Shown: positions 27,135 through 53,916 of the stretch, piece by piece
How the letters are laid out: every line of letters starts with the position of its first letter
Position numbering within the stretch: position 1 is the stretch's first letter
Origin: an uncultured Desulfosarcina sp.
Lineage (GTDB): Bacteria > Desulfobacterota > Desulfobacteria > Desulfobacterales > Desulfosarcinaceae
Direction: 5' to 3'
NCBI GenBank assembly: GCA_963674945.2
Contig: CAXXWQ010000003.1
Coordinates: 224,001-288,000, forward strand
Length of the DNA stretch: 64,000 bases
Position numbers and translations under genes: made by a program
The notes under the pieces: model-generated
What the model saw: only the letters and a program-made list of their open reading frames with translations
What the model was told of the DNA's origin: nothing
Databases searched by the model: none

Positions 27135-27135
27135 T

Positions 27136-27262: not shown

Positions 27263-27281
27263 CTGCGCAAGGTGTTTGATT

Positions 27282-31060: not shown

Positions 31061-31090
31061 CAGGACGTGAGAAAGCATGTGAGACACGTA

Positions 31091-31132: not shown

Positions 31133-31152
31133 CGAACCCAGAGGCTGTCACT

Positions 31153-34866: not shown

Positions 34867-36240
34867 TTACCGCCTGCCCATTTTTCGTAAATTTTGAACT
34901 GAGAAGAAGTCTTCCGGTATATCACCATAAGAAATGGGCGGAAGACCGTTGAAAAAAGTAAATGCGGGATAAAAGTCCACCTGGAAATCAAAATGCCAGT
35001 ACTGGGTCAGATTGAATGCCGGAAGGTCATAAAATTGTGTTCCACAAGCATATGACAGTCGCCACAGGTTTCCGCGCTTATCGTATTTGTCGATAATGGA
35101 AATCAGCCACGAGTCTTCATCCAGATAATAATGTCTTTTACCGTATATATGGCGAGCACCTTCCTTGAGAGTCCCCACGACCTCCCATACCCGATGAAGC
35201 TCCCAACGGATATATTCCGGGTTGGGATGACGGGGTGTCATCATCGGTTCATAGCCAGGAAGCAAGTCGATTTTGTATGTGTTATAGGGGATGTACATCT
35301 CTTTTTTCCCGACAATTTTCCAATCAAACCGGTCTAGTTTGCCCTTCCACATCCACGATCCGTCACTGGTCCCGATGCCACCGGCGGAAGAATCGAGTCC
35401 ATCGTAAAACATGTTGGGGTTCCGGCGCACCCTGCGCATTCCTGGTACATAGGACCATCCGATCGCGTCGTTTTTCGTATAGTCTGCCGGGTCCATCATC
35501 AGATACAATTCACCCACGCGGCCGGCCATTGTCATTTCAACGATATTCCCATAAACATAGCTTTGTGGATCAAATTGTTCATCGCCCTCAATTTTATACA
35601 TAAAATAATCTTTTGCAGATTGATCACTCCATTTACCGTTGCCCTGTACAATGCCTCCTCCTACATAATATGTCCAACATTTTGCGCCGTGCGGTCTTAA
35701 TATGAAATTACACATAACCTCTATGCCGCTTTTGGGGATTGGAAACGGAAACCCTTTGGTAAAATTACGTACACTGCCATATTCGTCGATACACTCTGCC
35801 GTCAAGGCATTGCTATACATTCCTTCATAATATTTTTCGCCGTATGCGGCGGATCTTCTGGAGGGATAGACGTGAATCTTGAAGGTATCCGGGTATATTT
35901 CGAACATCTTCAATATACCCGGGGATAATTTGTCTTTATATTGGTCTACATTCTGCGCTGTAATGGTAAACAGGATCTTGTCTTCGGCATACGGATCCGG
36001 GTGAGGCAATCCGGATTTGACCTCATAATCGATGCTTTCGGGAATTGTTGAAAGTCCGCCGGTCCAGGCAGGGATGGTTCCTTCTTTATTTCCCGCCCGC
36101 TCGCCTCCCATGGGATTGAATTCTGATTTCAGTTTTGCTGCCTCTTCAGACGTCACTTTTGAAAAGGCTGGTGTTGCCGTACCCAACAGTAGAATCACCG
36201 ACATCAAAAAGAATAAGGTTTTACCGATAGTACCGTTCAT
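34867..36240 (-). CDS. DUF1329-family secreted protein, paralog 4
   Basis: 457 aa; same motifs as paralogs 1 and 2; AAGGAG RBS. Confidence 0.88.
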   Translation of the reverse strand: MNGTIGKTLFFLMSVILLLGTATPAFSKVTSEEAAKLKSEFNPMGGERAGNKEGTIPAWTGGLSTIPESIDYEVKSGLPHPDPYAEDKILFTITAQNVDQYKDKLSPGILKMFEIYPDTFKIHVYPSRRSAAYGEKYYEGMYSNALTAECIDEYGSVRNFTKGFPFPIPKSGIEVMCNFILRPHGAKCWTYYVGGGIVQGNGKWSDQSAKDYFMYKIEGDEQFDPQSYVYGNIVEMTMAGRVGELYLMMDPADYTKNDAIGWSYVPGMRRVRRNPNMFYDGLDSSAGGIGTSDGSWMWKGKLDRFDWKIVGKKEMYIPYNTYKIDLLPGYEPMMTPRHPNPEYIRWELHRVWEVVGTLKEGARHIYGKRHYYLDEDSWLISIIDKYDKRGNLWRLSYACGTQFYDLPAFNLTQYWHFDFQVDFYPAFTFFNGLPPISYGDIPEDFFSVQNLRKMGRR

Positions 36241-36714: not shown

Positions 36715-37251
36715 TTATGCCAAGCCATGCTTTTTGAGATGTCGATCGACCGCTTCAAAGTACTCTTCGTGTCCATTAACATATGGTCCTTGCGACCCGA
36801 TTGCTTCTTGGAGGAAGACACCGTAATCGTAGTCAGCGACAAAAGTTTGCCAGTTTGTAATTTCATAATTTTCATTGGTTTCGACAAAACCAGTAGAGTA
36901 AAAACTCCACTCTTCACCGGTATCCACGTGATGTCCGGCGAAATGTGTTCGCATAACGAAACCATTTTCGGATGGCCAGCAGTTGAATTCTTTTGGTGCC
37001 CAATCGGGAAACTTGACTGAATAAGAAAGTGCTTCCATGGTCGCGTAGGTGGCCACATCTACGACCATTCCTCCTAATTTTACAGTATTTTGGCGTCCTC
37101 CGGTAAAATATGGTGACCAGAATATGGCGTCCTCCGCGAACTTCCATTCCTCATATTTTTCTCCATCTTTTACGACTAGACGCTTGTAAGCATCACGGTA
37201 GGCTTCGGCCATTCGTCGATGTTTGGCGACCCGTTCCTCAACCTTTGACAT
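36715..37251 (-). CDS. Hypothetical protein, probable SnoaL/NTF2-like fold
   Basis: 178 aa; GGAGG RBS; FAEDA.F..P and F.ET.E..EI..W pattern typical of NTF2-like proteins. Confidence 0.6.
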   Translation of the reverse strand: MSKVEERVAKHRRMAEAYRDAYKRLVVKDGEKYEEWKFAEDAIFWSPYFTGGRQNTVKLGGMVVDVATYATMEALSYSVKFPDWAPKEFNCWPSENGFVMRTHFAGHHVDTGEEWSFYSTGFVETNENYEITNWQTFVADYDYGVFLQEAIGSQGPYVNGHEEYFEAVDRHLKKHGLA

Positions 37252-37295: not shown

Positions 37296-38108
37296 TTAAC
37301 ACTCCGGTAATTCCTGACGTAGATTATTGCCCAATAAGGGTTTCAAATTATCTTTTATAAAAACAGGTTTTCCAGCCTTATCCGCACATTTGACGATCGC
37401 CCGGACCCATTCTACCTTCGGGGGCTTATAAGGTTTAGTCTGACTTCCTATGATGATCCAATCCGCTTTCGGAACAATACTCGGGCCGAACGCCGGAGGC
37501 AGTTCCATCACATCCTCGAGCAGGGGCTCGAAGGAGAGGTATTTCAGTTTGGCCTTCACTCTACCACTGAAATAATACCACCATGCGTGATAAGCGGTCC
37601 GTGCGTCGCAAACAGTAGACCCTATCCAACAATTGTCTGGAAAGGGAGAACATTTTGTTAAATTCCACGGCCGCTTGGTAAGAAAATAGAAACGGTGCTG
37701 AGGATTGGATCTGATTGCTTTAAATATCTCCCTTTGCCAGTCATAAGGAATCCATTCGGCAAACATTTCGCACATGTTTCCTACAAAGATACCTTTTGGC
37801 TTCCTTTGCCGATTACGAATTACACGGCCTCTTCTTTCTCCGATACACAACGATTTTTTCCCCCGCATTTCTTTCAGCCGTTCAGGCCAGAAACGAGGAT
37901 AAAAAGGATCGGCCAAATGCTGTCTGCGATTTGGATCATCATTTGAAGGTAAGTTTTTATTCGCCAAGAATCTCGTTTTCAAACGCCCGTTTGCTATCTT
38001 CCGAGCATAGCAGTACGCGCAACCTACAAGGCAGCCGGTTATTGGATTCCAGCTATACCCCTGGCTACCATCCGGATTTTTTACCCATTCGACTTTGGTC
38101 CTGTTCAT
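37296..38108 (-). CDS. DUF5131 (phage Gp37/Gp68-like) radical SAM-like protein
   Basis: TKVEW...SWNPITGCLVGCAYCYA, FLTKRP, SFEPLLE, DWIIIG and PVFIKDNL motifs. Confidence 0.85.
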   Translation of the reverse strand: MNRTKVEWVKNPDGSQGYSWNPITGCLVGCAYCYARKIANGRLKTRFLANKNLPSNDDPNRRQHLADPFYPRFWPERLKEMRGKKSLCIGERRGRVIRNRQRKPKGIFVGNMCEMFAEWIPYDWQREIFKAIRSNPQHRFYFLTKRPWNLTKCSPFPDNCWIGSTVCDARTAYHAWWYYFSGRVKAKLKYLSFEPLLEDVMELPPAFGPSIVPKADWIIIGSQTKPYKPPKVEWVRAIVKCADKAGKPVFIKDNLKPLLGNNLRQELPEC

Positions 38109-38141: not shown

Positions 38142-38188
38142 AAGGCAGGTTTGGTTGAATAGTAAATATATTCAACCAAACCTGCCTT
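38142..38188 (-). terminator. Perfect 20-bp hairpin downstream of the corrinoid gene
   Basis: AAGGCAGGTTTGGTTGAATA-gtaaata-TATTCAACCAAACCTGCCTT. Confidence 0.7.
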
Positions 38189-38195
38189 ACTCATT

Positions 38196-38885
38196 TTATT
38201 TATTTCTTTCCACCCACCGTTCCATCTTGCCAGCCATCAGCGCCTTGACCTTTTCCAGTGCCTCGAAGGCGGTTTCGCCGTAAGTGTCGGCGCCGATCTC
38301 GTCACACCACTCGGGCGTCATTCCCCATCCGCCGGTGATATAGATCACGTCGTCTCTGACGCCGGCTTCGACCATGGCCTTGTGGATGACACCGCAATAC
38401 GGCGTCACCGGACCGATGATGGCCGAGGCGCCTACGATGTCTGGCTTGTACTTCTTGATCGCCGCAACGAAATCGTCGGCCGACTTGTTCTCTCCGATAT
38501 CGATGGACTTGATGCCTGCACCGGAAAAGAAGGCGGAGACGATTCTCTTGCCGACGTTGTGAAGATCGCCTTCTACCGTGCCGATGATCATCACCTTATC
38601 CTCCGGCTTCCGATTCATTATGGAGGCTTCGACATCCGCTGTCGGCAGCAACTTCTCCATGGCGTCGTTCATGATCTGTCCCGAGATCATCAGGTCGCTC
38701 ATGAACCGGTCATTGGCTTCGTACTCATCGCCGATAATGGTCAACCCGGGGCTTAACCCCTTAACAATGACATCCAGGGCAGGAATCTTGGCATCCATGC
38801 ACTCCTGAACCAGCTGGGCGACCAGGTCGTCATCCAGATCGATAATCGCCTCTTTTAGTTTCTCGAGTATTTCTTCATTTGCCAC
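38196..38885 (-). CDS. Corrinoid (cobalamin-binding) methyl-carrier protein, module 2
   Basis: Cap domain (GLSPGL.IIG); DxHxxG motif GTVEGDLHNVGK; GTG start. Confidence 0.92.
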   Translation of the reverse strand: MANEEILEKLKEAIIDLDDDLVAQLVQECMDAKIPALDVIVKGLSPGLTIIGDEYEANDRFMSDLMISGQIMNDAMEKLLPTADVEASIMNRKPEDKVMIIGTVEGDLHNVGKRIVSAFFSGAGIKSIDIGENKSADDFVAAIKKYKPDIVGASAIIGPVTPYCGVIHKAMVEAGVRDDVIYITGGWGMTPEWCDEIGADTYGETAFEALEKVKALMAGKMERWVERNK

Positions 38886-39001
38886 TGGGATCCGAATCCT
38901 TTAATCGAAGTCGAAGCACGTCAGTGCTTCCGGCGTTCGGGTTGAAGCCGGGTGCAAAACGCCCGGCTTGAATAAAACGAATCAAAAATTGAGATTTCGG
39001 G

Positions 39002-40252
39002 TTATTCATACCTTCCGTATTTTTTCTGCGTTTTGATCGCGGCGTCAATGTGCTCCGCCGGCGCCCAATACGGCGGGAAGATATCGATCGTGAATTTGGG
39101 CATGTGCTTGTGCTTGAGGACGATATCCTTCACCTCTTCCTCAATGGCTGAGATTGGGCCGTTTTCCATGATTTCATCATGGCCGGAAAAACTCATGAAA
39201 CATTCATGTTCGTGATGCCAATCCGCCACCGCTTCCAGGTCACATTCACCGCGTCCGCCGGCACCACCATTCCACATTTCTCCTGCAGGCCCAAGTGCGC
39301 CTTGCTCCCAGACAATCGGAAGCGCTTTCATCGTCATGCCTGTGAGGGGATAACCATGGGATAAGTGGATCGGTCTTCCGAGTTTTTCTTTTGCATAATC
39401 ACTCAGCGCTTTGCCGAGTGTTCTATAAGAATCAAGCATCCATTCTTTGCCACCCAACGGGTAGCTGTCCCACATCGCTCACATCCATATCCCGTCTGGT
39501 TCACACTCATCGATCATGGCTTTACCGAATCCGATGAGAAACTCGGTGGCGATCTCATGGCCTTTCTTTATTATCTCCGGTTGCTTTCGCAGGAAATTGG
39601 GAAACTCCATCCAACCCAACATCCCCATCATCATCAAAAGGTCCGGACCTGGGCAGATTGAAGTCCAAAGCGGCATGGGTATCTTGTACTCGGTGAGTAT
39701 TCGTCTGAACTCCCGGTTGGCCCAGATATAACCTGGATACAAGCCATCCTTGCGAGTATCCGGCACGGGCATGCCCTCTAAATCATCGATGGTTTTGATC
39801 GGCATGGGCGGTTCGATAATCGGGTTTCCATAGTCGATCATGATCGACTGACCGCCCCACATATCCTCGCCGTAATTGATGTTATGAAAGTTGCAATAGT
39901 CCAGTCCGAAACGGGCAGCCGTTGCCAGATGGGTCAATATCCACAGCTTCGGATACAAAAGCGTATCCACCGGCTTTATCGCATCGGAAGAGTGATCCAT
40001 GGCATGACTGATGTAGACGGAGGTCGTCGCAAGGTACGTCAACGTGCGATCCTTATCCTCACCATACATCGTCGCTTTCCAGCGCTCGAGAGGGGTCATC
40101 CCTCCCTCATCCTTAATATTGTTGAGAATCTTTTCACAGTAGCGATCTATCAGTACTTTTTCTTCACGGCTCCACTCAAAATCCAGCTTATCGAGATGCG
40201 TGTTGTACCAATAGGGCGCCGGTTTAATCGGTTTTCTTCCTTGAAAAGCCAT
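39002..40252 (-). CDS. UroD/MtaA-fold corrinoid methyltransferase, module 2; candidate selenoprotein (in-frame TGA at codon 258)
   Basis: ORFs 39479..40252 and 39002..39475 are in one frame (TGG ATG TGA GCG ATG); read-through gives 416 aa colinear with paralog 44075..45295; SECIS-like hairpin follows the TGA. Confidence 0.75.
39449..39465 (-). promoter_or_regulatory. Candidate bacterial SECIS element
   Basis: GCUACCC-GUU-GGGUGGC, a 7-bp stem with one G-U pair, at +14 to +30 after the UGA; the loop begins GU at +21. Confidence 0.65.
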
Positions 40253-40277
40253 AACTCACCGACCTCCTTTTAAATAA

Positions 40278-40619
40278 TTACATCGTTGCAGGCAACACCT
40301 TCATCAAGGCCTCATCGGATTTCCGAGACTTCATTTTACCCTCGGTATACGCTTCCATTGGGGGGACTGTTTTATTATTAATACCTACCCATGTGTCACT
40401 GTCCATTTCAAGGACGCCGTCGGCGGCATCCTCATCGATCTTTTCTTCGCAGTTTTCCACCGTTCCGTCCATGGCCATCTTTAACAGCCAGCCGGTGTTC
40501 AGATCGGAAATGACGAACTGGATAGAGCCACCCCAATCCGCTGAAGAAAATGGGCCTACTTCGTTAATCTTTTCGACCATCGTCTGCATGGCATTTGCCG
40601 CCTCTTCCATCGTTGCCAT
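40278..40619 (-). CDS. SCP2 sterol/lipid-binding domain protein
   Basis: 113 aa; IQF.ISD...ADGVLEMDSDTW..I......PMEAY..GKMK pattern. Confidence 0.8.
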   Translation of the reverse strand: MATMEEAANAMQTMVEKINEVGPFSSADWGGSIQFVISDLNTGWLLKMAMDGTVENCEEKIDEDAADGVLEMDSDTWVGINNKTVPPMEAYTEGKMKSRKSDEALMKVLPATM

Positions 40620-40638
40620 TTACTTTCCCCCGTTTCTA

Positions 40639-41841
40639 TTATGCTTTGGTGATCCCGGCCTCCAATGCCAGTTCCAAGATGTCCAGTGTATCTATATCGG
40701 AGCCTGCTGCATCGATACCATCGATGATGTTTCTCTTGCAGGAAGGGCATGCGGATAGGACGACTTCTGCGCCGACTTCTTCGGCCTGGGCCGCCTTGTC
40801 CATTCCAATCTCCACCGCCAAGTCGTAGTTGATACCCTTGACGCCACCACCGCCGCCACAACACCAGGTTTTTTCACGGTTTCTGACGAATTCCACAATC
40901 TCGATTCCTGGGATGGCTTCGAGAATCTTCCTCGGCTCGTCAAAAACCCGCATGTCACGCCCCAGTTCACAAGGATCGTGATAGACCACCTTCTTTTTCA
41001 CCTCCTTGGTAAACTTCACCTTACCTTGCTCGATCTGCTCTGCCAGTATCTGAACGATGTGTTTTGCCTGGATCTTGTAATCGTCGCCCTCCAACTTCAG
41101 CATCTTGGGATAATCCTGAACGAGGATCCGATAGCAACCGGCGCAGGAAGCGATCACCTTCTTGCCCTTCATCAGCTCATAATTATGCCGCATCAAATCC
41201 CTTGCCAAAAACAGGTTTCCCATCATCAGCATGGGATTGCCGCAACAATGCTCTTCCTCTCCCAGGATGTTAAAGGGGATGTCCAGTATGTTGAGGATCT
41301 TTCCCGTTGCCTGAGCGATCTCTATTTCCCGAAAACTCGACAGGCACCCGACGAAATAGGTAGTATCGGCATTGGGATCCAGTTTGATGTCGGCATCCTC
41401 CGCCCACTCGCCTCTCTCCTCGTTGGGATAGCCCATTACATTCTGTGATTTCTCAACGGTATCGCAGAACATGTGGACCTCATCGGGAAGTTTGGCACCG
41501 GAAGAATATAGTTCGGCTCTTATTGCCTTAACGATGTGCGGATGATCGATCAGCGGGCCAAAGGTTTCCATATCCACGGCACCGCAGGTTTCACGACAGT
41601 TTCCACAGAGAAGACACTCGTAGATCGCCTGGACCGGAGCATCGGTGATATCGTATCTACCCTCTAAGACGTTCCTGCCTACCTCTACCCTGCCAATGGG
41701 GAAATTGGTCCAGAATCCCGCCGTATGCTCACCCGCAGGGCACACCCTGAACACCTTCTGTTCCAAACTATACTTTGAACGACATACGCCACATCGGACG
41801 CACCTCGTCACGCCTTTACGATATTTCTCTAACTCACCCAT
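40639..41841 (-). CDS. Fe-S oxidoreductase (GlcF/HdrD-like; ferredoxin + two CCG domains), module 2
   Basis: CVRCGVC, CLLCGNCRETC, CCGNP, SCAGC, YHDPC, CCGGGGG and SACPSC motifs. Confidence 0.9.
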   Translation of the reverse strand: MGELEKYRKGVTRCVRCGVCRSKYSLEQKVFRVCPAGEHTAGFWTNFPIGRVEVGRNVLEGRYDITDAPVQAIYECLLCGNCRETCGAVDMETFGPLIDHPHIVKAIRAELYSSGAKLPDEVHMFCDTVEKSQNVMGYPNEERGEWAEDADIKLDPNADTTYFVGCLSSFREIEIAQATGKILNILDIPFNILGEEEHCCGNPMLMMGNLFLARDLMRHNYELMKGKKVIASCAGCYRILVQDYPKMLKLEGDDYKIQAKHIVQILAEQIEQGKVKFTKEVKKKVVYHDPCELGRDMRVFDEPRKILEAIPGIEIVEFVRNREKTWCCGGGGGVKGINYDLAVEIGMDKAAQAEEVGAEVVLSACPSCKRNIIDGIDAAGSDIDTLDILELALEAGITKA

Positions 41842-41853
41842 TCTGCCGCCTCC

Positions 41854-43308
41854 TTACGCAAAGAATACACCGGGATTCATGATGTTATTGGGGTCCATAG
41901 TTTTCTTCATGGTCTTGACAAAGTGATAGAATTCCGGCGTCCAATACCTTGCCTGGACCCTGGACATGTGACCCTGGGTGGCCTCCATCACATATCCGCG
42001 CTTAGCAGATTCTTCCAGGAAATCCGCCCACATTTCATAAACTTCCCTGTGAAGCTCTTTATCGGTTTCATCCAGAAACGGGATAAAGGTTGTCATCCCA
42101 TAGCCTGGCCCCGATGACAGAAGGCCGGTGATCAACTGCATTTTGTCGTCGATGCCTCTGTCCTTCAGCCGTTTGAAGAAAAACTCGCGGCCCCACTTGT
42201 AGTTATCCAGAATGTCTCTTCGCGATACGATGAGCTCCAATAACGGTACGCTGCCCATCGTGGCCATATTGTTCATGTCATGGGCAAAATCGAGAAAGGT
42301 CTGGGTGAAAGTCACCACACCCGGCGTAGCCTGTGTTCCTCCGTGCCGTGTGTAACATTCGTCGGCAATCTTGTACTTTAAATCGACCTCTTCCTCGCTG
42401 AGGCCGATATTGATGAAAAACAAGATCCACTTTTTTGGCCCCCCGGGATCGATCATATCGATGTACTCCGGACCGAGCAGCATCCCACTGGTGTATGGCT
42501 GTATATACAAATAGGGGTCCACATTCCACAATTCACTATAGGCTGCAAACGCTTGATCCACCGTATCGAAAAAGTAAGCGTTGCCTTTGCGCGCTTTGGG
42601 CAGTGGGAACATGCGATAGGTTGCCTCGACCTTTATTCCGAACATCCCCCCGTCACCGACGAATAGACCGGCCATGTCCGGGCCATGCATTCCCCTGGCC
42701 CAGCTGTTGCCTCGATACTGGCTAAGCGTCCCCTGGCCCGTTCCGGTGTCCACGATTTCCCCATTGGGCAGAACCACCTTTACGCCATTCAGGTAATGAT
42801 AATTCCATCCGATGGAGTAACTGTACCGGCCGAATCCCCCACCCGGTTCCCCGCTGATGTGACCGCCGAGTGTGTTGATATAGTGGGGAACGCCGGCAGT
42901 GTGGATATCATATCCCTTCTCGTTAACTTTACTGGCCAGCTCGCCCAGGGTTATGCCGCACTGAGCGGTTACCGCCGTATTTTCCTCATCGATCTCAAGT
43001 ACTTTGTCCATTCGCCGCATGTCTACGATAATAGCCCTTCCCGGTTGTCCCTTGGGCACACCGGAAATCGAGGCTTTTCCTCCCATGGGAACCAGAGGGG
43101 TGCGCGTCTGGTTTGCCAGCCTGACAATCTCGACAACCTCCTCCGTTGAACCGGGGCGTGCTACGACACCCTGGGCACTTGCCGGTGGAACACAACTTGT
43201 ATCCTTGGTATAGGATAAAAGAACGGAATAATCATCCGAGACATATGTGGAACCAACGATCGACTGCAATTCCTGATATAGCTCGTGATGTGCTCTAGCT
43301 AATACCAT
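41854..43308 (-). CDS. FAD-linked oxidoreductase (GlcD/VAO-PCMH family), module 2
   Basis: RPGSTEEV, PMGG, TLGG, GPDMAGLFVGDGG.FGI and MDPNNIMNPG motifs. Confidence 0.9.
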   Translation of the reverse strand: MVLARAHHELYQELQSIVGSTYVSDDYSVLLSYTKDTSCVPPASAQGVVARPGSTEEVVEIVRLANQTRTPLVPMGGKASISGVPKGQPGRAIIVDMRRMDKVLEIDEENTAVTAQCGITLGELASKVNEKGYDIHTAGVPHYINTLGGHISGEPGGGFGRYSYSIGWNYHYLNGVKVVLPNGEIVDTGTGQGTLSQYRGNSWARGMHGPDMAGLFVGDGGMFGIKVEATYRMFPLPKARKGNAYFFDTVDQAFAAYSELWNVDPYLYIQPYTSGMLLGPEYIDMIDPGGPKKWILFFINIGLSEEEVDLKYKIADECYTRHGGTQATPGVVTFTQTFLDFAHDMNNMATMGSVPLLELIVSRRDILDNYKWGREFFFKRLKDRGIDDKMQLITGLLSSGPGYGMTTFIPFLDETDKELHREVYEMWADFLEESAKRGYVMEATQGHMSRVQARYWTPEFYHFVKTMKKTMDPNNIMNPGVFFA

Positions 43309-43371
43309 TGATCTTCCTCCGTTTGAAAATTACCGATTCTCCTTTAGCGCGTGTAAGCCATTTACGTAAGC

Positions 43372-44034
43372 TTACACACCCCTTTGGGAACGGATTGTCT
43401 TGACCTTGCCTATGGCATCGACGGCGTTTTCGCCGAAGGCGTCGGCCCCAACTTCGTCGCACCACTCCTGCGTCATTCCCCAACCACCGATTAGATAGAT
43501 CACATCATCCCTTATCCCGGCTTCCACCAAGGCTTGATTGATCACTTTGCAGTATGGCTTCAGCGGTCCGAGGATCGCCGAGGCGCCTACGACCAGTGCA
43601 TTATTCTCTTTTACCGCCTTTACGAATGCTTCGGCCGGTTGGTTCTCTCCAATATCAATTACCTTGTATCCTGCGCCGAGAAACAAAGAGGAAACGATTC
43701 GCTTGCCGATGTTGTGATCGTCACCTTCCACGGTACCAATCACCAGCGTATCCCCCGAGTATTTATCATCTCCAGCGCTGGCTTCTATGGCGGGACGCAG
43801 TATCGGCATGGCATCGCCCATCAGTTCTCCTGCGATCACCATGTCGGCCATGAACCTCTCACCGGTCTCGAAACCTTCGCCAATGATGGTCAAACCGGGG
43901 CTCAATCCGTCCATGATCATATCCATAGGCGCCAGATTCTCCGATAGACCATCTTTGAGCAGTGTATGAATGTTCTCCTCATCGAGGTCGATCATCGCCT
44001 GTTTCAGGCCGGCTAAAATTTCTTCCTTTGGCAT
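43372..44034 (-). CDS. Corrinoid methyl-carrier protein, module 1
   Basis: GTVEGDDHNIGK; paralog of 38196..38885; ATG 44034 after AAGGAG. Confidence 0.92.
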   Translation of the reverse strand: MPKEEILAGLKQAMIDLDEENIHTLLKDGLSENLAPMDMIMDGLSPGLTIIGEGFETGERFMADMVIAGELMGDAMPILRPAIEASAGDDKYSGDTLVIGTVEGDDHNIGKRIVSSLFLGAGYKVIDIGENQPAEAFVKAVKENNALVVGASAILGPLKPYCKVINQALVEAGIRDDVIYLIGGWGMTQEWCDEVGADAFGENAVDAIGKVKTIRSQRGV

Positions 44035-44074
44035 CCTTCGGTACTCCTTCTTACCGTTTTGGTCTGGAAGTCGA

Positions 44075-45295
44075 TTAGTATTTACCGTATTTCTTTGCGG
44101 CGGCAATGGCAGCATCGACGTGCGCCTGCGGGGTATGGTAGTCAATCGCCCCGATCCCTATGGAGAACTTGGGGTGATCCTTTCCATATTCACACCGCAT
44201 TTTAACATCCTCTTCGATATCTGCGGTCGGTCCATCCAGTACGGTCTTGTCCGAAGAGAGGCAGATACATTGAATGTCGTACTCTTTAGAGCTATCGACT
44301 GTCTTTATATGATCCAATCCGCCACCGGTAACCCATCCTTTCAGGCCTTCCGGTCCCATTATCCCTCTTTCAACCACGTGTGGGAGCCACACCGCATCGG
44401 CGGCCACACCAGCCGTGTAATAGACGGGGATGTGGGCACCCACGGTTTTGCAGACCTTTTCATGGTGGTCCAGTGTCCACTCATTTCCCTTTACCGGCAA
44501 CCAGCCGAGCCCGGCAGAAATCCAGAGCGCGTCGGCTCCCATCTCATGGGCGGCAAGACATGAATTAATGTAAAGTTCGTCCGCCATCTCCACGCACTTC
44601 TTAAGCAATTCAGGGTTCTTACGTGTAAGCACCATCAATCCGCTGATACCCGTCATGCCCAGCATCACGATGGCAACCGGTTCGCAAAGAACACCGACCA
44701 TCATCGGCAGAGACTCGGACAAATTAAACTCGTCAAGGAATTTCCTGCACTCTCTTACGGCCCACAGGTATCCGGGGTAGAGGCCATGCTTCCTATGGTC
44801 GGGAATTTCCAGCCCCTCCAGATCCTCCATGGTCTTTATCGCAGGGTCTCCCACCACGACCGGGTTGCCATAATCGATCAACTTAGAATTTGCTCCCCAC
44901 AGATCTTCTGTATAACCGGTTGTATAGGGGAAAATCCAATCCGCTTTGAATCTGGCCGTAAAGGCAAAGTGCTGCTTTACCAGCAGTTTTGGATTTCTGT
45001 ACCCGTCTATCGGCTTTAGCGCATCTGCATTGGAATCCAGTGTTCGAATGGCGTAGACATTAAAAGGCGCCGTTGCAACGAAACAACGGTCTTTTTCCTT
45101 GCCTTCCTGTGTAGCAATCCACCGCTCACGCGGAGTCATCTCTTCTTCTTCGATATTTTTATGTATCTTCTCGCAATAGCGCTCGATTTCCAGTTTCTCT
45201 TCGGCAGACCACTCGAAATGGAGTTCATCCAAAGGCGTGTCATACCAATCGGGCGCATTTTGCATTCTGATCCGTTCTTTAGCCAAGGCCTTCAC
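44075..45295 (-). CDS. UroD/MtaA-fold corrinoid methyltransferase, module 1
   Basis: MTPRERW, IKTMEDLEGLEIPD, NPELLKK, GPTADIEEDVK and TPQAHVDAAI motifs; GTG start after GGAG. Confidence 0.85.
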   Translation of the reverse strand: MKALAKERIRMQNAPDWYDTPLDELHFEWSAEEKLEIERYCEKIHKNIEEEEMTPRERWIATQEGKEKDRCFVATAPFNVYAIRTLDSNADALKPIDGYRNPKLLVKQHFAFTARFKADWIFPYTTGYTEDLWGANSKLIDYGNPVVVGDPAIKTMEDLEGLEIPDHRKHGLYPGYLWAVRECRKFLDEFNLSESLPMMVGVLCEPVAIVMLGMTGISGLMVLTRKNPELLKKCVEMADELYINSCLAAHEMGADALWISAGLGWLPVKGNEWTLDHHEKVCKTVGAHIPVYYTAGVAADAVWLPHVVERGIMGPEGLKGWVTGGGLDHIKTVDSSKEYDIQCICLSSDKTVLDGPTADIEEDVKMRCEYGKDHPKFSIGIGAIDYHTPQAHVDAAIAAAKKYGKY

Positions 45296-45348
45296 CTCCT
45301 TGCTCTTTTGGGCATGGGTTTGGCAATTCGGTTACCCTTAACAGACGA

Positions 45349-45795
45349 TTACACCTCTTCTTTGGCGATCTCCGTGATGTCTTTCTTCATCCACTCGGCG
45401 GCTTCGGTAGAGTCTCCCTTCACCAGCCGGGTCATGTCGTCATCCAGGTCGGACGGCTCGATAATCACCAGCCAACCATCGCCATAAGGATCTTCGTTGA
45501 CCAGCGTCGGATTGTCCAACACCGCCTGGTTGGCCTCCACGATCGTTCCGCTTACGGGTGACAACAATGGTCCGACCCACTTGGCCGTCTCCAGAGTTCC
45601 GAATCGTTTTCCCTGCTTCACTTTCTTGCCGGCTGGGAAAAGCCTCATGAACTTGAGTTCTCCGGCCTGCTTCTGGGCAAAGTCGTCTACGCCGACTCTG
45701 ATTTTGCCGTCTTCGTTTTTCGCCCAGCTGTGCGCCGTGTCCTGCGGCCAGTAGTGAAGATCCTTGTCTACCCAATACTTACCAATCTTCGGCAT
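45349..45795 (-). CDS. Glycine cleavage H-like lipoyl-carrier protein
   Basis: H.WAK..D..IRVGVDDFAQ, lipoyl lysine in LETAKWVG, SPVSG and VNEDPYGDGWL motifs. Confidence 0.88.
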   Translation of the reverse strand: MPKIGKYWVDKDLHYWPQDTAHSWAKNEDGKIRVGVDDFAQKQAGELKFMRLFPAGKKVKQGKRFGTLETAKWVGPLLSPVSGTIVEANQAVLDNPTLVNEDPYGDGWLVIIEPSDLDDDMTRLVKGDSTEAAEWMKKDITEIAKEEV

Positions 45796-45807
45796 ATTTT
45801 ATTCTCC

Positions 45808-47004
45808 TTATGCTTTTGCGATCCCAGCTTCGATACACAGTTCAAGGACGTCCAACATGTCCAGATCGGAACCGGCGGCCTTGATGCCGTCATTGATGTT
45901 GGTCTTGCAGGATGGACAGGCGGATACGATTACCGTGGCGCCGACTTCATTGGCCTGTGCCACCTTGTCCGTAGCGATCTCCACGGAAAGGTCGAAGTCG
46001 AATCCTTTGACACCGCCACCGCCGCCACAGCACCAGGTCTGCTCTTTGTTACTGAAAAACTCCACCACCTCGAGTCCGGGAATCGCGGCAAGGATCTTCC
46101 TCGGCTCATCATACGTCTGCGTGTCTCGACCCAGTTCGCAAGGATCGTGATAGACCACCTTCTTTTTGACCTCTTTGGTGAACTTCACCTTGCCCTGCTC
46201 GATCTGCTCGGCCAGTACCTGAACGATGTGTTTGGGTGTAATCTTGTAATCGTCGCCTTCCAGTTTCAGAATCTTGGGATAATCCTGAAGGAGAACGCGA
46301 TAGCAGCCGGCACAGGAGGCGATCACCGTCTTGTCCTTCATTCTTTCATAGTTGTGACGCATCAGATCGCGGGCCAGCATCAGGTTGCCCATCATCAGCA
46401 TGGGATTGCCGCAGCAACTCTCTTCCTCTCCCAGTATGTTAAAGGGGATGTCCAGAATGTTGAGAACCTTACCCACCGCCTGGGCGATCTCCACTTCCCG
46501 AAAGCTGGAAAGGCATCCGACAAAATAGGTGGTGTCGGCATTGGGATCCAGTTTGATGCCCGCATCTTCCACCCAGTCGGCGCGCTCTTCGTTGGGAAAT
46601 CCCATGACGTTCTGGTTTTTTTCAATGGCCGTACAGAACATGTCGACGTGCTCCGGTAACTCGACCCCGGAGTTGAACAGGTCCGCTCTCAGGGCCTTGG
46701 TGATATGGGGCTGAATGATCCTGGGCTTGAATGTCTCCAGGTCCAGGCACCCGCAGGCCTGCCGGCAGTTGCCACAGAGAAGACAACTGTATGCATATTC
46801 GGCCAGCTTCGGGGTTATTTCAACGGTTCCCTCGAGAACGCCCCTGGCCATCTGATTCCTTCCACGGGATGAATAAACCTCGAAACCTTCGGTATGTTCC
46901 CGAATGGGACAGATCTTCCTGTCGCCCCAGGGGCTGTATTTATGAACGCAGACTCCGCATCGAGTGCACCCGTAGATACCTTTTACGTGTTTTTCTAATT
47001 CCAT
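45808..47004 (-). CDS. Fe-S oxidoreductase (GlcF/HdrD-like), module 1
   Basis: Same Cys motifs as 40639..41841. Confidence 0.9.
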   Translation of the reverse strand: MELEKHVKGIYGCTRCGVCVHKYSPWGDRKICPIREHTEGFEVYSSRGRNQMARGVLEGTVEITPKLAEYAYSCLLCGNCRQACGCLDLETFKPRIIQPHITKALRADLFNSGVELPEHVDMFCTAIEKNQNVMGFPNEERADWVEDAGIKLDPNADTTYFVGCLSSFREVEIAQAVGKVLNILDIPFNILGEEESCCGNPMLMMGNLMLARDLMRHNYERMKDKTVIASCAGCYRVLLQDYPKILKLEGDDYKITPKHIVQVLAEQIEQGKVKFTKEVKKKVVYHDPCELGRDTQTYDEPRKILAAIPGLEVVEFFSNKEQTWCCGGGGGVKGFDFDLSVEIATDKVAQANEVGATVIVSACPSCKTNINDGIKAAGSDLDMLDVLELCIEAGIAKA

Positions 47005-47037
47005 TTATTTTTACCTCTCGCTTACGATAGGACGAAT

Positions 47038-48480
47038 TTATAGATCCCAAATTCCTGGATTCATGATGTTATTCGGGTCGAATGCCTTTTTAAGCTTTCT
47101 CATGAAATCGAAACGCTCTTTGGGCCAGAATTTGGCCATCATTCGCGTCCCCCAGCCCTGATGACAATCCGGGTACCATCCGTTGGAACATGCAAATTCG
47201 GTAGCATCCAAGAAGAGTTGCTGCATTACTTGTCGCGCGTGCGGGTCCTCTCCCTTGGTCCATACGGGCATGGAAACGATCCAGGCGGCCGAACCGGTGG
47301 GAATCATGGTCTCGTTGGAATTGAACGCGACACCTTCCTTGTTGAGCCTGTCGTAGATAAAGTCTCTCATCCCTTGATGGCACGCCGCCACCTGAGAACG
47401 GGCGATATAATACTCAAAAAACGCCCATGTACCCAGGCTGCCGAATTCACCCATCTCCCGGTGTCGCTGCCCATCGAGGGATTGTTTCTTCCAGTCTTCC
47501 GCCGCCGCATGCGTGGCTTCTTCAATTGAATGTTTCGACGCCAGGTCTTTAATGATCTCCAATTTGGCGTCCGTCTCTTTTTGCGTGGTTCCTTTGGCGA
47601 TAATGATGCACATGTGTTTTTTCATGCCCATCATTTCCTGGAATATCTTCACCGGCACGATGATCGCCATGCAGTAATAAGGAAGCGGTTCGACAACACT
47701 CAGCTCCCGGCAGTAATCGTATGCCTGATCCCAACTGTCGCAGTCGAAAGCCAGCGGTACTCTTATGGGAGTATCCTTATACATGCGATACGTGGCTTCC
47801 ACCTTGATCCCGAATGTGCCGGCATCGCCGATAAACATCCCGGTAAGATCCGGGTTTCCCGGATAACGATCGTAGATCATATCGCAGTGAACGTTGCTCC
47901 CCGCACCGGCGCCGGTTTGTACGATCGATCCATCGGGAAGAACCACCTTCACGCCGGGAATATGCGTGGCGTTAAATCCTGCGACAAACAATTCCATTCC
48001 GCCGCCACCGCCGGCAAAACCGGCGATTTGCCCGCCAAGCGTGTCCGGATAAAAGGGTTGAAACGCAGTATGGACATCCCATCCCCGATCCCAAATATAG
48101 GTGGAGAATTCGGATGTGGTCATGCCGGCTTCGGCGGTGACCGTCAGATTGTACTCGTCGAAGTTCAGCATCTTGTTCATGCGCGTCATGTCGACCACGA
48201 TGCCTTTTCCATGCAGCCCCTTGGGAGTGCCGTAGAAAGATGCCCTTCCCCCGCTGGGCACGATGGGAATCTTGGTAGCGTTGGCCAGTTTTACGATATC
48301 CACGACCTCGTCCGTGCATGAGGGACGTACCACGATCCCCTGCTTGTTCGGTGGTAGCGGACTGGTATCCCTGCTATAGGTCTCCAACACCACATCTTCG
48401 TCAGTGACATATTTAGGGCCGACGATTCCTCCCAGATCATAGTACAATGGGTGATGTGCTTTCCGAACGACGACAGCCAT
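47038..48480 (-). CDS. FAD-linked oxidoreductase (GlcD/VAO-PCMH family), module 1
   Basis: RPSCTDEV, PSGG, TLGG, PDLTGMFIGDAGTFGI and FDPNNIMNPG motifs; ATG 48480 after AAGGAGG. Confidence 0.9.
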   Translation of the reverse strand: MAVVVRKAHHPLYYDLGGIVGPKYVTDEDVVLETYSRDTSPLPPNKQGIVVRPSCTDEVVDIVKLANATKIPIVPSGGRASFYGTPKGLHGKGIVVDMTRMNKMLNFDEYNLTVTAEAGMTTSEFSTYIWDRGWDVHTAFQPFYPDTLGGQIAGFAGGGGGMELFVAGFNATHIPGVKVVLPDGSIVQTGAGAGSNVHCDMIYDRYPGNPDLTGMFIGDAGTFGIKVEATYRMYKDTPIRVPLAFDCDSWDQAYDYCRELSVVEPLPYYCMAIIVPVKIFQEMMGMKKHMCIIIAKGTTQKETDAKLEIIKDLASKHSIEEATHAAAEDWKKQSLDGQRHREMGEFGSLGTWAFFEYYIARSQVAACHQGMRDFIYDRLNKEGVAFNSNETMIPTGSAAWIVSMPVWTKGEDPHARQVMQQLFLDATEFACSNGWYPDCHQGWGTRMMAKFWPKERFDFMRKLKKAFDPNNIMNPGIWDL

Positions 48481-49285
48481 TCTAAACCTCCTTGTGCAAA
48501 AGTTACTTTTTTGAAAGCGCTGATTGGAACGATAAATGAAATTCAGTTTGCTGATTATTTGTCCTACGCCAACATTCACTGTATCTAAGGGTTACACGAG
48601 GTTCACCGGAAGCTTACCGATGGCATTTGATTTCAACTCCATAGTATTGGAAACCGAATGGGTGAATCATCAGAAAATCTTTTCTCGGCAAAAAGTGGTC
48701 GGCGACCTTTCTCAAAGGTCGCAACAATCGAAAAGGCATCATTTTCTGCTTGATTGCGCAACACCACAGTCGTGCGAAACATTGCCCCTTTCCGGTTTGC
48801 CTTTATCCCCCATGGTTCTGAGTAGATTCAATCCAAGGGTGGCGGGCAGAAGTCAGCTCAATTTTCGCCAATTCGTTTTGTAAATAAAAACGATTCATTC
48901 TCAAAGCCAACACTATACAATCGTATATGGCCATGTCAAGTTATTATGTCAATCTTTTTCTTATTTTTTTTGGCATTTTTCATTTTTAACAAATTTTCAA
49001 TCTATTATTGACAATTTTATATTTTTATTATTGTCATATTGTAATCTTCTACTAACCAATTTATCGTTAATAGCAATTGACACACCATATTTATTGCCAT
49101 TTTTAAATTTTTTCACTATTTTTGATGTTTTTTTACATGTTTATTCGAATTTATTTTGTCATTTTTAATTAGTTAGATGAGCTTTATTGAATAAAAGATG
49201 GCAGTTATGGTATAGGAATTTTTTACATTTCACGACACACGACAATTGATTCAAACTGTATTATCACGGAGGTTTATAAAATATA

Positions 49286-50218
49286 GTGCAACTCGATAAA
49301 GTTGATCTCATGATTATGGAAGAATTGAAGGAGGATGTAAGACAGCCCGTTCACGCACTGGCAAAAAAGCTGGGGATGAAACGAACAACCGTTACGTATC
49401 GGTTGAACAGGCTTAGATCCGAAGGTATTCTGAGAATCGCTTGTGTCGGTGACCCTGAACTTCTAGGATATCAATTTCTGCTTTTAATCGGGATCAACGT
49501 TACCCCTGGCAAGGTTGACAATGTGATCAATGAATTGGTCTGCCTGCCGGCAGTTGTCGTCGTAACCCTTACCGCTGGCAGGTACAACATTTTGGCGTGG
49601 GCTCTTTTGCGCGATCGTCCATCTTTTGCGAACTTGGTATCGGAGCATCTGACGAAGATACCTCATGTTCTGTCTCTCGATCTCATGCACTCTTTTCAAT
49701 GGATTAGAGATGATTTGAATTATTTCAAATCTCAAGTCGGCGATGTTCGCAAACCTCCGGAATATAGTCCCAGCGACACAGACTTGGCCATCGTTCGGGC
49801 CATGGAGATTGATCCCCGGCAAACTGTCGCAGCATTGGCAAAAACCGTTGGCTGCAGCAGATCCGTTGCAAAGAGAAGATTGGACAGCCTCGTGTCCGAT
49901 GGTATCATCAGGTTTGTCAGTCTTGTTGATCCAAAAGGATTGAAATACGAAATATGGGTAGTTATTTTGGTTAAATCGCAACCTGATAAACAGTATGCTG
50001 TGGCGAAAGAGCTGTCAATGCAAAGTACTTCCACTCATGTCAGCCTGATCACAGGTCAATGGCATATATTCGTAGCAGCGCGGTTTAAAAAAAATGAAGA
50101 AATGTACAATTTTATGTCGAATACACTGTCTTCAATTCCCGGCATTCTGGAGTTCGAGGTTATTCACCTATTAAAAATTCCGAAATACTCATTTAGTAGC
50201 TTTCTCGATTCGAATTAA
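49286..50218 (+). CDS. Double-domain Lrp/AsnC-family regulator (paralog 2)
   Basis: Long shared stretches with 20944..21885 (GMKRTTV.YRLNRL, VVTLTAGRYNI.AWALLRDR, HVSLITGQW); GTG start. Confidence 0.88.
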   Translation: MQLDKVDLMIMEELKEDVRQPVHALAKKLGMKRTTVTYRLNRLRSEGILRIACVGDPELLGYQFLLLIGINVTPGKVDNVINELVCLPAVVVVTLTAGRYNILAWALLRDRPSFANLVSEHLTKIPHVLSLDLMHSFQWIRDDLNYFKSQVGDVRKPPEYSPSDTDLAIVRAMEIDPRQTVAALAKTVGCSRSVAKRRLDSLVSDGIIRFVSLVDPKGLKYEIWVVILVKSQPDKQYAVAKELSMQSTSTHVSLITGQWHIFVAARFKKNEEMYNFMSNTLSSIPGILEFEVIHLLKIPKYSFSSFLDSN

Positions 50219-50232: not shown

Positions 50233-51102
50233 TTACTTTTGCTCAGCCATCTTGTGTAGCCTCTGATAAGCGATTTGTCCACCGTCAATGGTTACATCGA
50301 TTCCTGATAAAAAGGAAGCTTTATCGCTCAGCAAAAATTCAATAACATTAGCCATTTCCATGGGAGTCCCCATCCTTTTGAGAGGCGTATATGTATTCAC
50401 CATATCATCCATTCTTCCTCCGGTTTTGATAGACCTCTCCAATTCGGCACGGCTGCCTTCTGTGTCAGCGATTCCAGGCGATATGCAGTTCACTCTGATC
50501 TTATTTTCTTCCCCGAATTGTACTGCATACTTCCGAGTCATCAGGTGGATACCTCTTTTGGATATCGGGTATGCCAAGTTGCAAGCCATTTCCTCACCCA
50601 TTGACAAGATGATGGGCTTGAGTTTTTCTACAACATCAGGGTCGGTATCTGTTGCGTATAATATATCATCGATTTTCTCGAGCATCTCCCTTTTTATCAT
50701 GTATGGTGAGGAAGATCCGAAGAGCACCATGGATGAACCTGCTTCCATGACCGTAGCAAATGCTTGCACGAGGCTGTTCACGCCTACCAGACTGACGTCC
50801 ATAATCAACTTCCAGCGCCCGCAGGCCGGTGTCATGCCGGTTACCGCAACAAGCCCGGTAATTGTGCCGGCAGCAACAGCTGTCTTCACCAGATTGTGGA
50901 TGTCTTCTTTCCGCAAGACGTCACAAACCTGAGCAATAACATCAATGTTCTTTTCATTCATATAAGCGATGCCGTCATCGACCTCTTTTTGGTTTGCTCC
51001 GGTCATAACTACTTTGTAACGCTGTGACAACAGTTCTGAAACTGCAATTCCGATTCCACCGACTTTGGCACCGCCGGCGATAACAACCACATTATTATCC
51101 AT
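50233..51102 (-). CDS. SDR-family oxidoreductase (atypical)
   Basis: VVIAGG..GGIG, YPISK, RVNCISPG and IDGG motifs. Confidence 0.85.
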   Translation of the reverse strand: MDNNVVVIAGGAKVGGIGIAVSELLSQRYKVVMTGANQKEVDDGIAYMNEKNIDVIAQVCDVLRKEDIHNLVKTAVAAGTITGLVAVTGMTPACGRWKLIMDVSLVGVNSLVQAFATVMEAGSSMVLFGSSSPYMIKREMLEKIDDILYATDTDPDVVEKLKPIILSMGEEMACNLAYPISKRGIHLMTRKYAVQFGEENKIRVNCISPGIADTEGSRAELERSIKTGGRMDDMVNTYTPLKRMGTPMEMANVIEFLLSDKASFLSGIDVTIDGGQIAYQRLHKMAEQK

Positions 51103-51143
51103 GTTTTACCTCATTCAATCGTTTTACGCCGTATTACCGGTCC

Positions 51144-51944: not shown

Positions 51945-52265
51945 ACTCAAGTGCTACCTCGTTTATGATTTGCTTTGCACTACGATTATTTGGATGCGAG
52001 TTCCTGGATTGCGCGCGTTTTGCATTTGCCATGAATCGGCTTCTGTCAAAGGTTGATATGCCGTCGACGGAAAAAGGGCAACCTGATTATGAAGTTGGCG
52101 CCCTTTTTTGCTAATGCGTCAATGTCTATTGAAGATATACGAATTTCAATTTATTTTGGACAGCAGCGATTGTATATACCATTGTCAGGCCCTCGGGCGT
52201 ATCAACCAAGTTACGAACGCTTTGCGCCTGATTCGTTTTCCGAGCCTCGCTTCCAGAGCATGGTG

Positions 52266-53285: not shown

Positions 53286-53311
53286 ACAAAATCCTCCTTG
53301 AAATGATCAAC

Positions 53312-53349
53312 AGCCGGGCATTTGCCATTTTTTTCGCAAATACCCGGCT
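53312..53349 (-). other. Intergenic hairpin within the operon
   Basis: Minus strand AGCCGGGUAUUUGC...GCAAAUGCCCGGCU, with a U-G wobble that pairs only on the minus strand. Confidence 0.5.
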
Positions 53350-53358
53350 ACGATCCGT

Positions 53359-53895: not shown

Positions 53896-53916
53896 TTCTC
53901 TTTGTCATCGATATCA

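Follow-up and report, generated by a model that had tools for sequence, protein, structure and literature searches.

A tandem corrinoid methyltransferase locus of an uncultured Desulfosarcina is a satellite of a larger, predicted lipoyl-linked system

Why should a bacterium carry, one directly behind the other, two sets of genes for a flavoprotein, an iron-sulfur protein with CCG domains, a small carrier, a methyltransferase and a corrinoid protein, with a different carrier in each set? This arrangement occupies positions 38196-48480 on the minus strand of a 64,000-nucleotide stretch of DNA from an uncultured Desulfosarcina sp. (the whole stretch is called the window here; source genome G000, 7.08 Mb, 98.7% complete, 5.7% contamination). 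The original prediction, made from the letters of the window, described a tandem duplication with a swapped carrier and a possibly undescribed coupling of corrinoid to flavin and CCG redox chemistry. Our analysis keeps the coupling and gives up the duplication and the swap in the sense proposed. The window turns out to be a satellite of a more extensive system, present in G000 and in five other genomes, and the sequences of these clusters point to a rare and shuffled lipoyl-linked corrinoid methyltransferase system in which two known kinds of system are fused. No description of it was found in open PMC and bioRxiv main text.

Ten co-oriented genes are present as two head-to-tail modules (48480-43372 and 43308-38196), separated by intergenic spacers of 12-116 nt. 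Both modules contain the Pfam domains FAD_binding_4 and FAD-oxidase_C, Fer4_8 with two CCG domains, and B12-binding_2 with B12-binding, and the third slot indeed differs, with GCV_H at 45349-45795 (GcvH1, an orphan lipoyl H-protein with Lys72 in ETAKWVG and no Cys) and SCP2 at 40278-40619 (a lipid-binding-type protein of 113 aa). The two CCG motifs and the DxHxxG motifs of both corrinoid proteins are intact; the latter are Cor1 (43372-44034), of the methyltransferase type with a cap domain, and Cor2 (38196-38885), with five copies of 88-96% identity on contig C4. A contig from another study's run spans the Cor1/FAD2 junction with 52 differences in 692 nt; the head-to-tail arrangement is therefore not peculiar to this assembly. 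The window holds neither an MtrH nor a RACo gene, in line with the earlier remark that a tetrahydrofolate (THF) methyltransferase and an activator are absent from it.

Both components stand in paralogous clusters of the same genome. Between 643 and 707 kb, contig C4 carries genes for an MtrH/MtgA-like enzyme, RACo, LpdA, an LplA-like ligase, LipA, FadL, a further GlcD-like/GlcF-like pair and a second lipoylation kit described below, and the paralogous clusters of G000 together contain two sets of genes, MT(s)-Cor-SCP2-GcvH2-MtrH-RACo-LpdA-LplA-LipA-FadL and FAD1-CCG-GcvH1-GlcD-like-GlcF-like-LipS2-LipS1-sLplAB-LipT-like (MT, the methyltransferase family of the window; Cor, corrinoid protein). 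RACo is present in two copies inside the C4 cluster and again in loci L028, L096 and L097. All three MtrH copies of G000 adjoin MT family genes; MtrH lies at 974 kb on contig C3 and at 683 kb on C4, and GcvH2 at 649 kb on C4. A THF methyltransferase gene stands in the MT clusters L002, L006, L008, L027, L028 and L046. The one MtrH copy aligned matches MtgA with E 2.8e-103, its 387 bits remaining below the MtgA equivalog cut-off of 550, and keeps Ser32, Asp75, Asp102, Asn129, Asp194, Ser226, Asn227 and Arg236, the THF-binding residues named for MtgA (PMC7154762; for this and the other papers cited, statements refer to the part of the text that was available). The original prediction had offered, as one option, methyl or alkyl transfer onto a lipoyl thiol or Sec (selenocysteine); against a lipoyl thiol as final methyl acceptor speak this MtgA-like enzyme with its intact pterin residues and RACo in the paralogous clusters. 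G000 also holds AcsB; a scan with a single motif for formate-tetrahydrofolate ligase gave no match in this genome, which is not evidence of absence.

The five other genomes (G061-G064 and G597) are metagenome-assembled genomes labelled as Chloroflexota, Actinomycetota and Pseudomonadota. Lipoylation genes and a flavoprotein-CCG pair are part of the clusters in all five, GcvH2 in four, and MtrH beside MT or GcvH2 in four, so that the proposed corrinoid-flavin/CCG link recurs in every other genome examined, and in company with lipoyl proteins. The gene order is MT-Cor-MT-Cor-MT-MtrH-GcvH2-RACo-LipA-GlcD-like-GlcF-like in G062 (L028) and Cor-MtrH-GcvH2-RACo-LplA-LipA-GlcD-like-GlcF-like in the actinomycetotal G063 (L096). 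G061 carries SCP2-GcvH2-MtrH-MT (L027), MtrH..RACo-LpdA-LplA-LipA..FAD1-CCG (L097) and CCG-GcvH1-TfrA-like-TfrB-like-OsmC-LipS kit (L098), and G064 has MT-Cor-GcvH2 (L033), MtrH-LplA-LipA-MT (L052) and FAD-CCG-GcvH1-GlcD-like-CCG..sLplAB..HdrB-like (L094), the HdrB-like gene ending the last locus. In G597 (1.2 Mb), in which no H-protein was found, the orders are FAD2-CCG-SCP2-like-MT-MT-Cor-MT (L074) and MT-TfrA-like-TfrB-like-OsmC-LipS kit (L075); the third gene of L074 matches, at Atlas 0.95, clusters in which 30-40% of the members carry SCP2. The five-gene order of module 2 is hence seen once more, with an extra MT (L074), and that of module 1 was met nowhere else.

The lipoyl proteins of G000 form two clades of orphan H-protein, GcvH1 and GcvH2, with the lipoyl lysine in ETAK and ET[ST]K, respectively. 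Since a true glycine cleavage cluster with gcvH beside gcvT/P is located elsewhere, on contig C2, GcvH1 and GcvH2 are extras, and GcvH1 scores 94.5 on TIGR00527, below the cut-off of 115.85. Each type lies beside its own lipoylation kit. GcvH1 travels with FAD-CCG and with a LipS1/LipS2-sLpl(AB)-LipT kit, which is found outside the window in L009, L075, L098 and partly L094; as the second lipoylation kit of G000 it comprises LipS2-like, LipS1, LplA-DUF116 and, in the LipT position, a flavoprotein of the geranylgeranyl-reductase family. LipA (408 against a cut-off of 203), LpdA (575 against 409) and LipS1 (230.5 against 230) pass their NCBIfam thresholds, and the LipS2-like protein (208 against 270) stays below. 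Two ligase types have been described that distinguish acceptor proteins through their surface charge (bioRxiv 10.64898/2026.10.01.755906), in agreement with a genome that has two kits for two H-proteins. GcvH2 was absent from both draws of 400 genomes, one from the phylum and one from the class of G061; at every locus seen it directly adjoins MT, Cor or MtrH, with the exception of a lone SCP2-GcvH2 pair at 1020 kb on C3.

These positions also settle the question of the swapped carrier. The SCP2-like protein of the window is recognised by Pfam with E 1.7e-4 (22.3 bits, cut-off 21.3) and by Atlas (0.94 to SCP2 clusters), and its three paralogs in G000 each stand directly before GcvH2, as does the SCP2 gene of L027; of the four GcvH2 copies in G000, three come after SCP2 and three before MtrH. 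GcvH1, for its part, comes after FAD1-CCG at three places in G000. SCP2 and an H-protein thus normally occur together rather than in place of each other, and the window is a shuffled subset of the system, in which GcvH1 belongs to the FAD-CCG-GcvH1 unit rather than with the methyltransferase. Contigs from another study (run X4) join a CCG2-like end to the start of GcvH1 (window 45796/40635) and the end of GcvH1 to the start of Cor2 (window 38884/45348), which suggests other gene orders in relatives; these contigs may also represent paralogs or other organisms.

The methyltransferases MT1 (44075-45268, 397 aa) and MT2 (39002-40252, 416 aa) belong to a UroD-fold family that is divergent and has an additional segment at the N-terminus. 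MT1 matches the URO-D domain of Pfam (E 8e-10), and MT2 alone has no Pfam match. The model of MT1 (pLDDT 85.6) is a UroD/MtaA TIM barrel that superimposes best on MtaA (4ay7; Z 31.9, root-mean-square deviation (rmsd) 2.7, 324 residues aligned, 20% structural identity); the MtaA/UroD group spans Z 31.9-29.1 (UroD 30.7), and the next row outside it has 19.8. The score of MT1 on TIGR01463 (MtaA/CmuA) is 31.4 bits, below the cut-off of 235.4, and the family has not retained the HxC motif and the distal Cys that we take to form the zinc site of MtaA (only two of 129 rows have HxC in this region). The family is rare. Of 8000 candidates that were scored, 140 proteins reach E<=1e-10, and 10 genome loci and 13 metagenome loci are known to us; it was found in none of 30 same-genus genomes, with two weak matches in more distant relatives, in none of 400 genomes of the phylum and in one of 400 from the class of G061. 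G000 itself has 15 full-length copies, about 11 of them distinct and five with an in-frame TGA. An exact direct repeat of 3330 nt (MT with Sec, Cor, MT; C4:686998-693786) inflates the paralog counts; it may have arisen by duplication very recently or else be an artefact of the assembly. A split MT gene at a contig end (L036:10001-10966; G065, the Desulfobacterium sp. N47 record) follows genes for an old yellow enzyme (OYE), a flavocytochrome-like protein and a sigma-54 regulator. G064 additionally has a separate, more ordinary UroD-UroD-corrinoid-electron-transfer flavoprotein-CCG cluster (L054:7046-15178), about 25% identical to the MT family.

MT2 appears as two open reading frames under translation table 11 and as a single 416-aa frame if TGA codon 258 (39479-39481) is read through. 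In the alignment of 129 full-length rows, which include the G000 genes twice, this column holds Cys in 110, TGA in 10, Ser in eight and Ala in one, and seven of eight short database proteins stop one residue before it. Where a cysteine takes the place of Sec in an alignment, the residue is usually catalytic or redox-active. Both Cys positions of the family are kept in 96 of the 129 rows, the second being Cys195 of MT1, which ends a neighbouring strand in the model. A SECIS-like hairpin of 7 bp with a GUU loop (39449-39465, 16 nt from the start of the TGA) is shared by the TGA genes, with GUU or GGU as loop: over ten such genes 92.9% of 70 cells are paired, against 33-53% in slid controls, and 14 cells changed on both sides, whereby only four of the seven pairs covary, a level that shuffles also reach, and the structure was derived from one of the same sequences. 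Of the Sec machinery, G000 has SelA, two tRNA-Sec genes, a SelB-like motif and a SelD motif that itself contains a TGA. The hint at Sec in the original prediction is thus well supported by a TGA in a mostly-Cys column and by the hairpin, and MT2 is a well-supported predicted selenoprotein. In the available text of a May 2026 review of prokaryotic selenoproteins (PMC13188914), a search for uroporphyrinogen, UroD and MtaA gave 0 matches.

With respect to duplication, the modules are far apart. Identities between them amount to 36% for the flavoproteins, 71% for the CCG proteins, 39% for the methyltransferases (over 414 aa) and 54% for the corrinoid proteins, which does not agree with a tandem duplication in a recent sense; at the DNA level the main matches are confined to CCG (77% over 979 nt) and the start of FAD (69% over 524 nt), plus two of less than 50 nt. 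A tree in which MT1 and MT2 form a sister clade was rejected by the approximately unbiased test (p 0.00025, 26 rows), and the nearest rows are a metagenomic TGA-bearing gene for MT2 (66%) and a gene from Chloroflexota for MT1 (51%). A broken lipA copy after RACo (C4:667775-668110) and a short remnant of MT behind one copy of FAD1-CCG (C3:547429-547689) are consistent with ongoing shuffling and decay.

The flavoproteins FAD1 (47038-48480, 480 aa, motif DCHQG) and FAD2 (41854-43308, a second subfamily of the same family, EATQG) are paired with CCG1 (45808-47004) and CCG2 (40639-41841), both with a 4Fe-4S dicluster and two intact CCG domains of the HdrD/TfrB/GlcF type. FAD1 was modelled as a VAO/PCMH fold (pLDDT 94), VAO and AGPS following at Z 31-32 behind the best-ranked structure discussed below. 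In D-lactate and glycolate dehydrogenases a C-terminal EHG and preceding His ligands presumably form the active site; this EHG is present in only two of the 70 rows of the family, replaced by Gln (xQG) in 60, and is also absent from the GlcD-like paralog. By this motif an ordinary lactate/glycolate dehydrogenase (GlcD, LctD, LDHD) was rejected, one of the outcomes under which the original prediction would have had to be abandoned, and the glcD profile gives the window flavoproteins 96-99 bits against a cut-off of 568. Alkyl-dihydroxyacetone-phosphate synthase, of which we take an HHHG triad to be the mark, was rejected as well, HHG occurring in none of the 70 rows although the profile aligns over full length.

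TfrB is the best NCBIfam match of both CCG proteins (CCG1 170 bits against a cut-off of 385), and the window pairs, being VAO-fold proteins without a Fer2_3 domain, are not members of TfrAB. They share with TfrAB, GlcD/GlcF and LdhAB-type enzymes the combination of a flavoprotein with a dicluster and two intact CCG domains, and differ by scores below all family cut-offs and by xQG in place of EHG. Near-members of TfrAB fill the same slot in two Chloroflexota: TfrA-like (674 and 642 bits against 718) and TfrB-like genes (303 and 298 against 385) come after GcvH1 in L098 and after MT in L075, each time ahead of a LipS kit. These genes (L075:1232-4500, L098:1822-5090) lie within a lipoyl-protein maturation cluster. 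Their position beside a lipoyl protein and its kit would make the dihydrolipoyl dithiol the obvious electron donor, so that the thiol partner here, unlike that of TfrAB, is likely a lipoyl protein rather than coenzyme M (CoM) and coenzyme B (CoB). The FAD family was found in none of 60 relatives, so that the rare MT, GcvH2 and FAD families share their distribution.

What, then, might be demethylated? SCP2, FadL, MMPL and DUF1302/1329 genes lie in or beside the clusters, and DUF1329 has 15 matches in G000, fragments included, where 40 relatives have 0-2. Several DUF1329 genes occupy 25196-36240 of the window, one of them apparently split into 33753-34469 and 31331-32089 by a DDE_Tnp_1_4 transposase (32280-33719). 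Four KstD-like genes were identified in G000 at about 660 bits, below the cut-off of 789 and with 7p18 as best solved relative; one of 30 same-genus genomes has such genes. In G063, MtmB-like, corrinoid and KstD-like genes adjoin the lipoyl/MtrH/RACo operon (L032:144-5216, L096:2-3578) and resemble the steroid (de)methylases AbeABC and EmtAB. AbeABC demethylates a KstD-activated steroid and passes the methyl group to THF (PMC11912376). CrtO-like flavoproteins precede the MT genes in G064 and G597. MtmB (AbeA/EmtA) was sought in G000 and not found. On contig C4 of G000 (L111, L112, L116, L117) we also observed four glycyl-radical enzymes of 838-881 aa near KstD-like, OYE, short-chain dehydrogenase/reductase (SDR), FadL and sigma-54 regulator genes. 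The neighbourhoods favour hydrophobic, possibly steroid or terpenoid, substrates. Steroid- or terpenoid-type carbon, processed by a functional analogue of AbeABC, is our leading guess, a tentative one and weaker than the architecture of the system.

We hypothesize here, with a probability of about one half, that the locus is a satellite operon of a system for the corrinoid-dependent demethylation of hydrophobic substrates, in which the methyl group is passed to THF and lipoyl proteins serve as dithiol redox partner. The substrate would be imported by FadL and DUF1302/1329 proteins and held by SCP2. The UroD-fold enzymes would act as the substrate-side (MT1-type) methyltransferases and transfer the methyl group to Co(I) of their cognate corrinoid proteins, possibly by use of the Cys/Sec258 site together with Cys200 on the neighbouring strand. 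From there the MtgA-like enzyme would move it to THF for the Wood-Ljungdahl pathway, while RACo would reactivate Co(II); both would be supplied to the window operon in trans from the C4 and C3 clusters. The flavoprotein-CCG pairs may exchange electrons with lipoylated GcvH1 at their CCG clusters, in the manner of TfrB/HdrB with CoM/CoB, and the lipoyl pool would be connected to NAD(H) by LpdA. GcvH2 might maintain the redox state that the Cys/Sec site or the activation step requires, which is a guess.

This proposal resembles the four-component corrinoid demethylases, MtgABC of Desulfitobacterium (PMC7154762) and the steroid C-demethylase AbeABC (PMC11912376), in its cognate DxHxxG corrinoid proteins with cap domain, in an MtgA-like THF methyltransferase with pterin site and RACo (here both outside the window), and in a Wood-Ljungdahl host with many paralogs of the substrate-side enzyme and KstD-like genes in the genome. 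It differs from them by a UroD-fold enzyme with a Cys/Sec site that is neither MttB- nor MtmB-like, and by lipoyl H-proteins, lipoylation kits, LpdA, SCP2 and FAD-CCG pairs inside the operons; the string "lipo" has 0 matches in the available text of the AbeABC paper (PMC11912376).

Several observations weigh against the proposal. The window itself has no MtrH, RACo, GcvH2 or lipoylation gene of any kind, and we know of no corrinoid demethylase that needs a dithiol carrier. The five other genomes were chosen for carrying the MT family, and neither rows nor genomes are independent. Among them, FAD1/FAD2-type genes (E<1e-100) occur in only three, the clusters of G062 and G063 being without them, KstD-like genes likewise in three and SCP2-like genes in two (fetched loci only), and LpdA lies within the cluster only in G000 and G061. 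The Cys/Sec site is not universal: four of the 129 rows have neither Cys position, and MT1 of the window carries Ser251 in the Cys/Sec column. Finally, the nearest fold of FAD1 is D-lactate dehydrogenase (Z 36.2, rmsd 2.8, 433 residues aligned, 19% identity).

The alternative that fares best, still an unlikely one in our view, makes the lipoyl group a covalent methyl or alkyl carrier: MtaA-like UroD-fold enzymes would transfer the group between corrinoid and the dihydrolipoyl thiol of an H-protein, and FAD-CCG would oxidise the S-alkyl arm. The closest solved fold is indeed the thiol methyltransferase MtaA, for which non-native aliphatic thiols and dithiols also serve as methyl acceptors in vitro (PMC13618148). 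Apart from the lone pair on C3, each GcvH2 gene seen has MT, Cor or MtrH as its immediate neighbour, and the flavoproteins have lost the site for small hydroxyacids. The same operons, however, include an intact THF methyltransferase, the MT family has not retained the HxC and distal Cys of MtaA, and GcvH1 beside FAD-CCG and GcvH2 beside MT/MtrH are of different clades, so that one arm would not obviously visit both. The wider group of MtaA/MtbA/MtsA and the type 1 mlp clusters (Kountz and Balskus, PMC10418091) shares the UroD TIM barrel and several paralogs beside corrinoid and RACE genes, and departs from our system in the points given above for MtaA. As marks of this group we also used more than 25% identity to a soluble CoM methyltransferase, where MT1 has 20% to MtaA, and the definition of mlp clusters by the absence of a THF methyltransferase within 20 kb (PMC10418091); a type 1 mlp cluster was rejected because of the THF methyltransferase in the paralogous clusters, though the window alone fits that last point. 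In the available text of the same paper, a term search found 0 mentions of lipoyl, GcvH, FAD or sterol.

Less likely again is a methylthio demethylation, of dimethyl sulfide, methanethiol, methylmercaptopropionate or similar compounds, in which the methyl group goes to THF and the sulfur stays on lipoyl, with CCG proteins handling it as in sHdr-LbpA. UroD-family S-demethylases exist, and mlp clusters have been proposed for methyl-S/Se metabolism (PMC10418091). The likeness to sHdr-LbpA (PMC6067878, PMC10332631) lies in an orphan GcvH-like lipoyl protein beside CCG proteins and with its own lipoylation kit, the LipS1/S2-sLpl(AB)-LipT kit having first been found with sHdr-LbpA (PMC10332631); formation of dihydrolipoyl and its reoxidation by E3 have been proposed there (PMC6067878). 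OsmC-like genes within the LipS block of G000, G061 and G597, the HdrB-like gene of L094 and a TauE gene beside one MT-Cor pair point in the same direction. In contrast, GcvH1 lacks Cys altogether, whereas LbpA has two conserved cysteines apart from archaeal exceptions (PMC6067878), the CCG proteins here are partnered by a VAO-fold or TfrA-like flavoprotein, and the clusters are linked to corrinoid methyltransferases. In a scan of neighbouring genes, not of whole genomes, we identified neither shdrC1B1AHC2B2 and sulfur transferases nor TusA, DsrE and HdrA, and SCP2, FadL, MMPL and DUF1329 point to hydrophobic substrates instead.

Least probable of all is that two independent units, an ordinary O-demethylase of the MT1/Cor/MT2/RACE kind and a separate lipoyl-linked or ordinary FAD/CCG dehydrogenase, were shuffled together uncoupled on a mobile island, for the unique order of module 1, the GlcD/GlcF-like or TfrAB-like genes that follow FAD1-CCG-GcvH1 elsewhere, the G062 and G063 clusters without FAD1/FAD2-type genes, transposases near several loci and the dehydrogenase-like fold of FAD1 are outweighed by LplA/LipA and GcvH2 inside MT-Cor-MtrH-RACo operons (L008, L028, L052, L096, L097), by the module-2 order in another phylum (L074), by the near-absence of EHG, and by seven of 43 FAD matches on contigs of at least 5 kb that agree with MT matches in contig size and source.

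As regards the control of the operon, a double Lrp/AsnC regulator is encoded divergently at 49286-50218 on the plus strand (Pfam), and Lrp/AsnC-like regulators also lie 5' of the two paralogous loci L001 and L002; the double regulator likely controls the operon. The best sigma-70-like promoter match (TTGACA-16-TATAGT, 11/12; 48912-48939, minus strand) lies about 430 nt before FAD1 and is a consensus match only, from a scan that returned 23 sites with 17.1 expected by chance. Directly after Cor2, a 20-bp hairpin (38142-38188, strand not assigned) is a possible terminator. Rfam gave no riboswitch or other RNA family at gathering score in the window or in loci L006-L009, only sub-threshold hairpin matches. 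The operon is followed on the minus strand by a DUF5131 gene (37296-38108), of which the genome has three copies that are 70-100% alike, in the window, at C4:673 kb and at C1:353 kb, all of them close to a corrinoid/MT locus, and by a 178-aa reading frame (36715-37251) with a good ribosome-binding site, no Pfam match and a single copy in the genome. Upstream, a co-oriented run (50233-57659, minus strand) encodes SDRs, a Zn-alcohol dehydrogenase, a C_GCAxxG_C_C protein, two glyoxalase-fold proteins and MarR; a glyoxalase and SDR pair also stands between MtrH and RACo in L097.

Taken at its most far-reaching, the system would be a new class of B12 chemistry and make a Sec/Cys UroD-fold enzyme and a dedicated lipoyl protein indispensable to the catalysis of corrinoid (de)methylation, the lipoyl arm being a protein-bound substitute for CoM/CoB in bacteria that demethylate steroid- or terpenoid-type skeletons in anoxic sediments, a picture that we regard as possible and doubtful. 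In more sober terms, the gene content suggests that the clusters combine two known kinds of system into a new variant; its chemical steps are predicted, and there is a real prospect that some of them are new. The clusters define a predicted UroD-fold selenoprotein family, absent from the term search of the May 2026 review (PMC13188914, available text). If the proposal is true, protein-bound lipoate would have a role beyond the known lipoate-dependent complexes and sHdr, and the bacterial CCG/HdrD- and TfrB-like subunits outside methanogens would gain a concrete thiol partner, a long-open question for which the TfrAB-like genes of L075 and L098 are a clean test case for lipoyl as a substitute for CoM/CoB. 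Should the substrates indeed be hydrophobic, these clusters would provide candidate enzymes by which lipids, steroids or terpenoids could be demethylated anaerobically to supply the Wood-Ljungdahl pathway.

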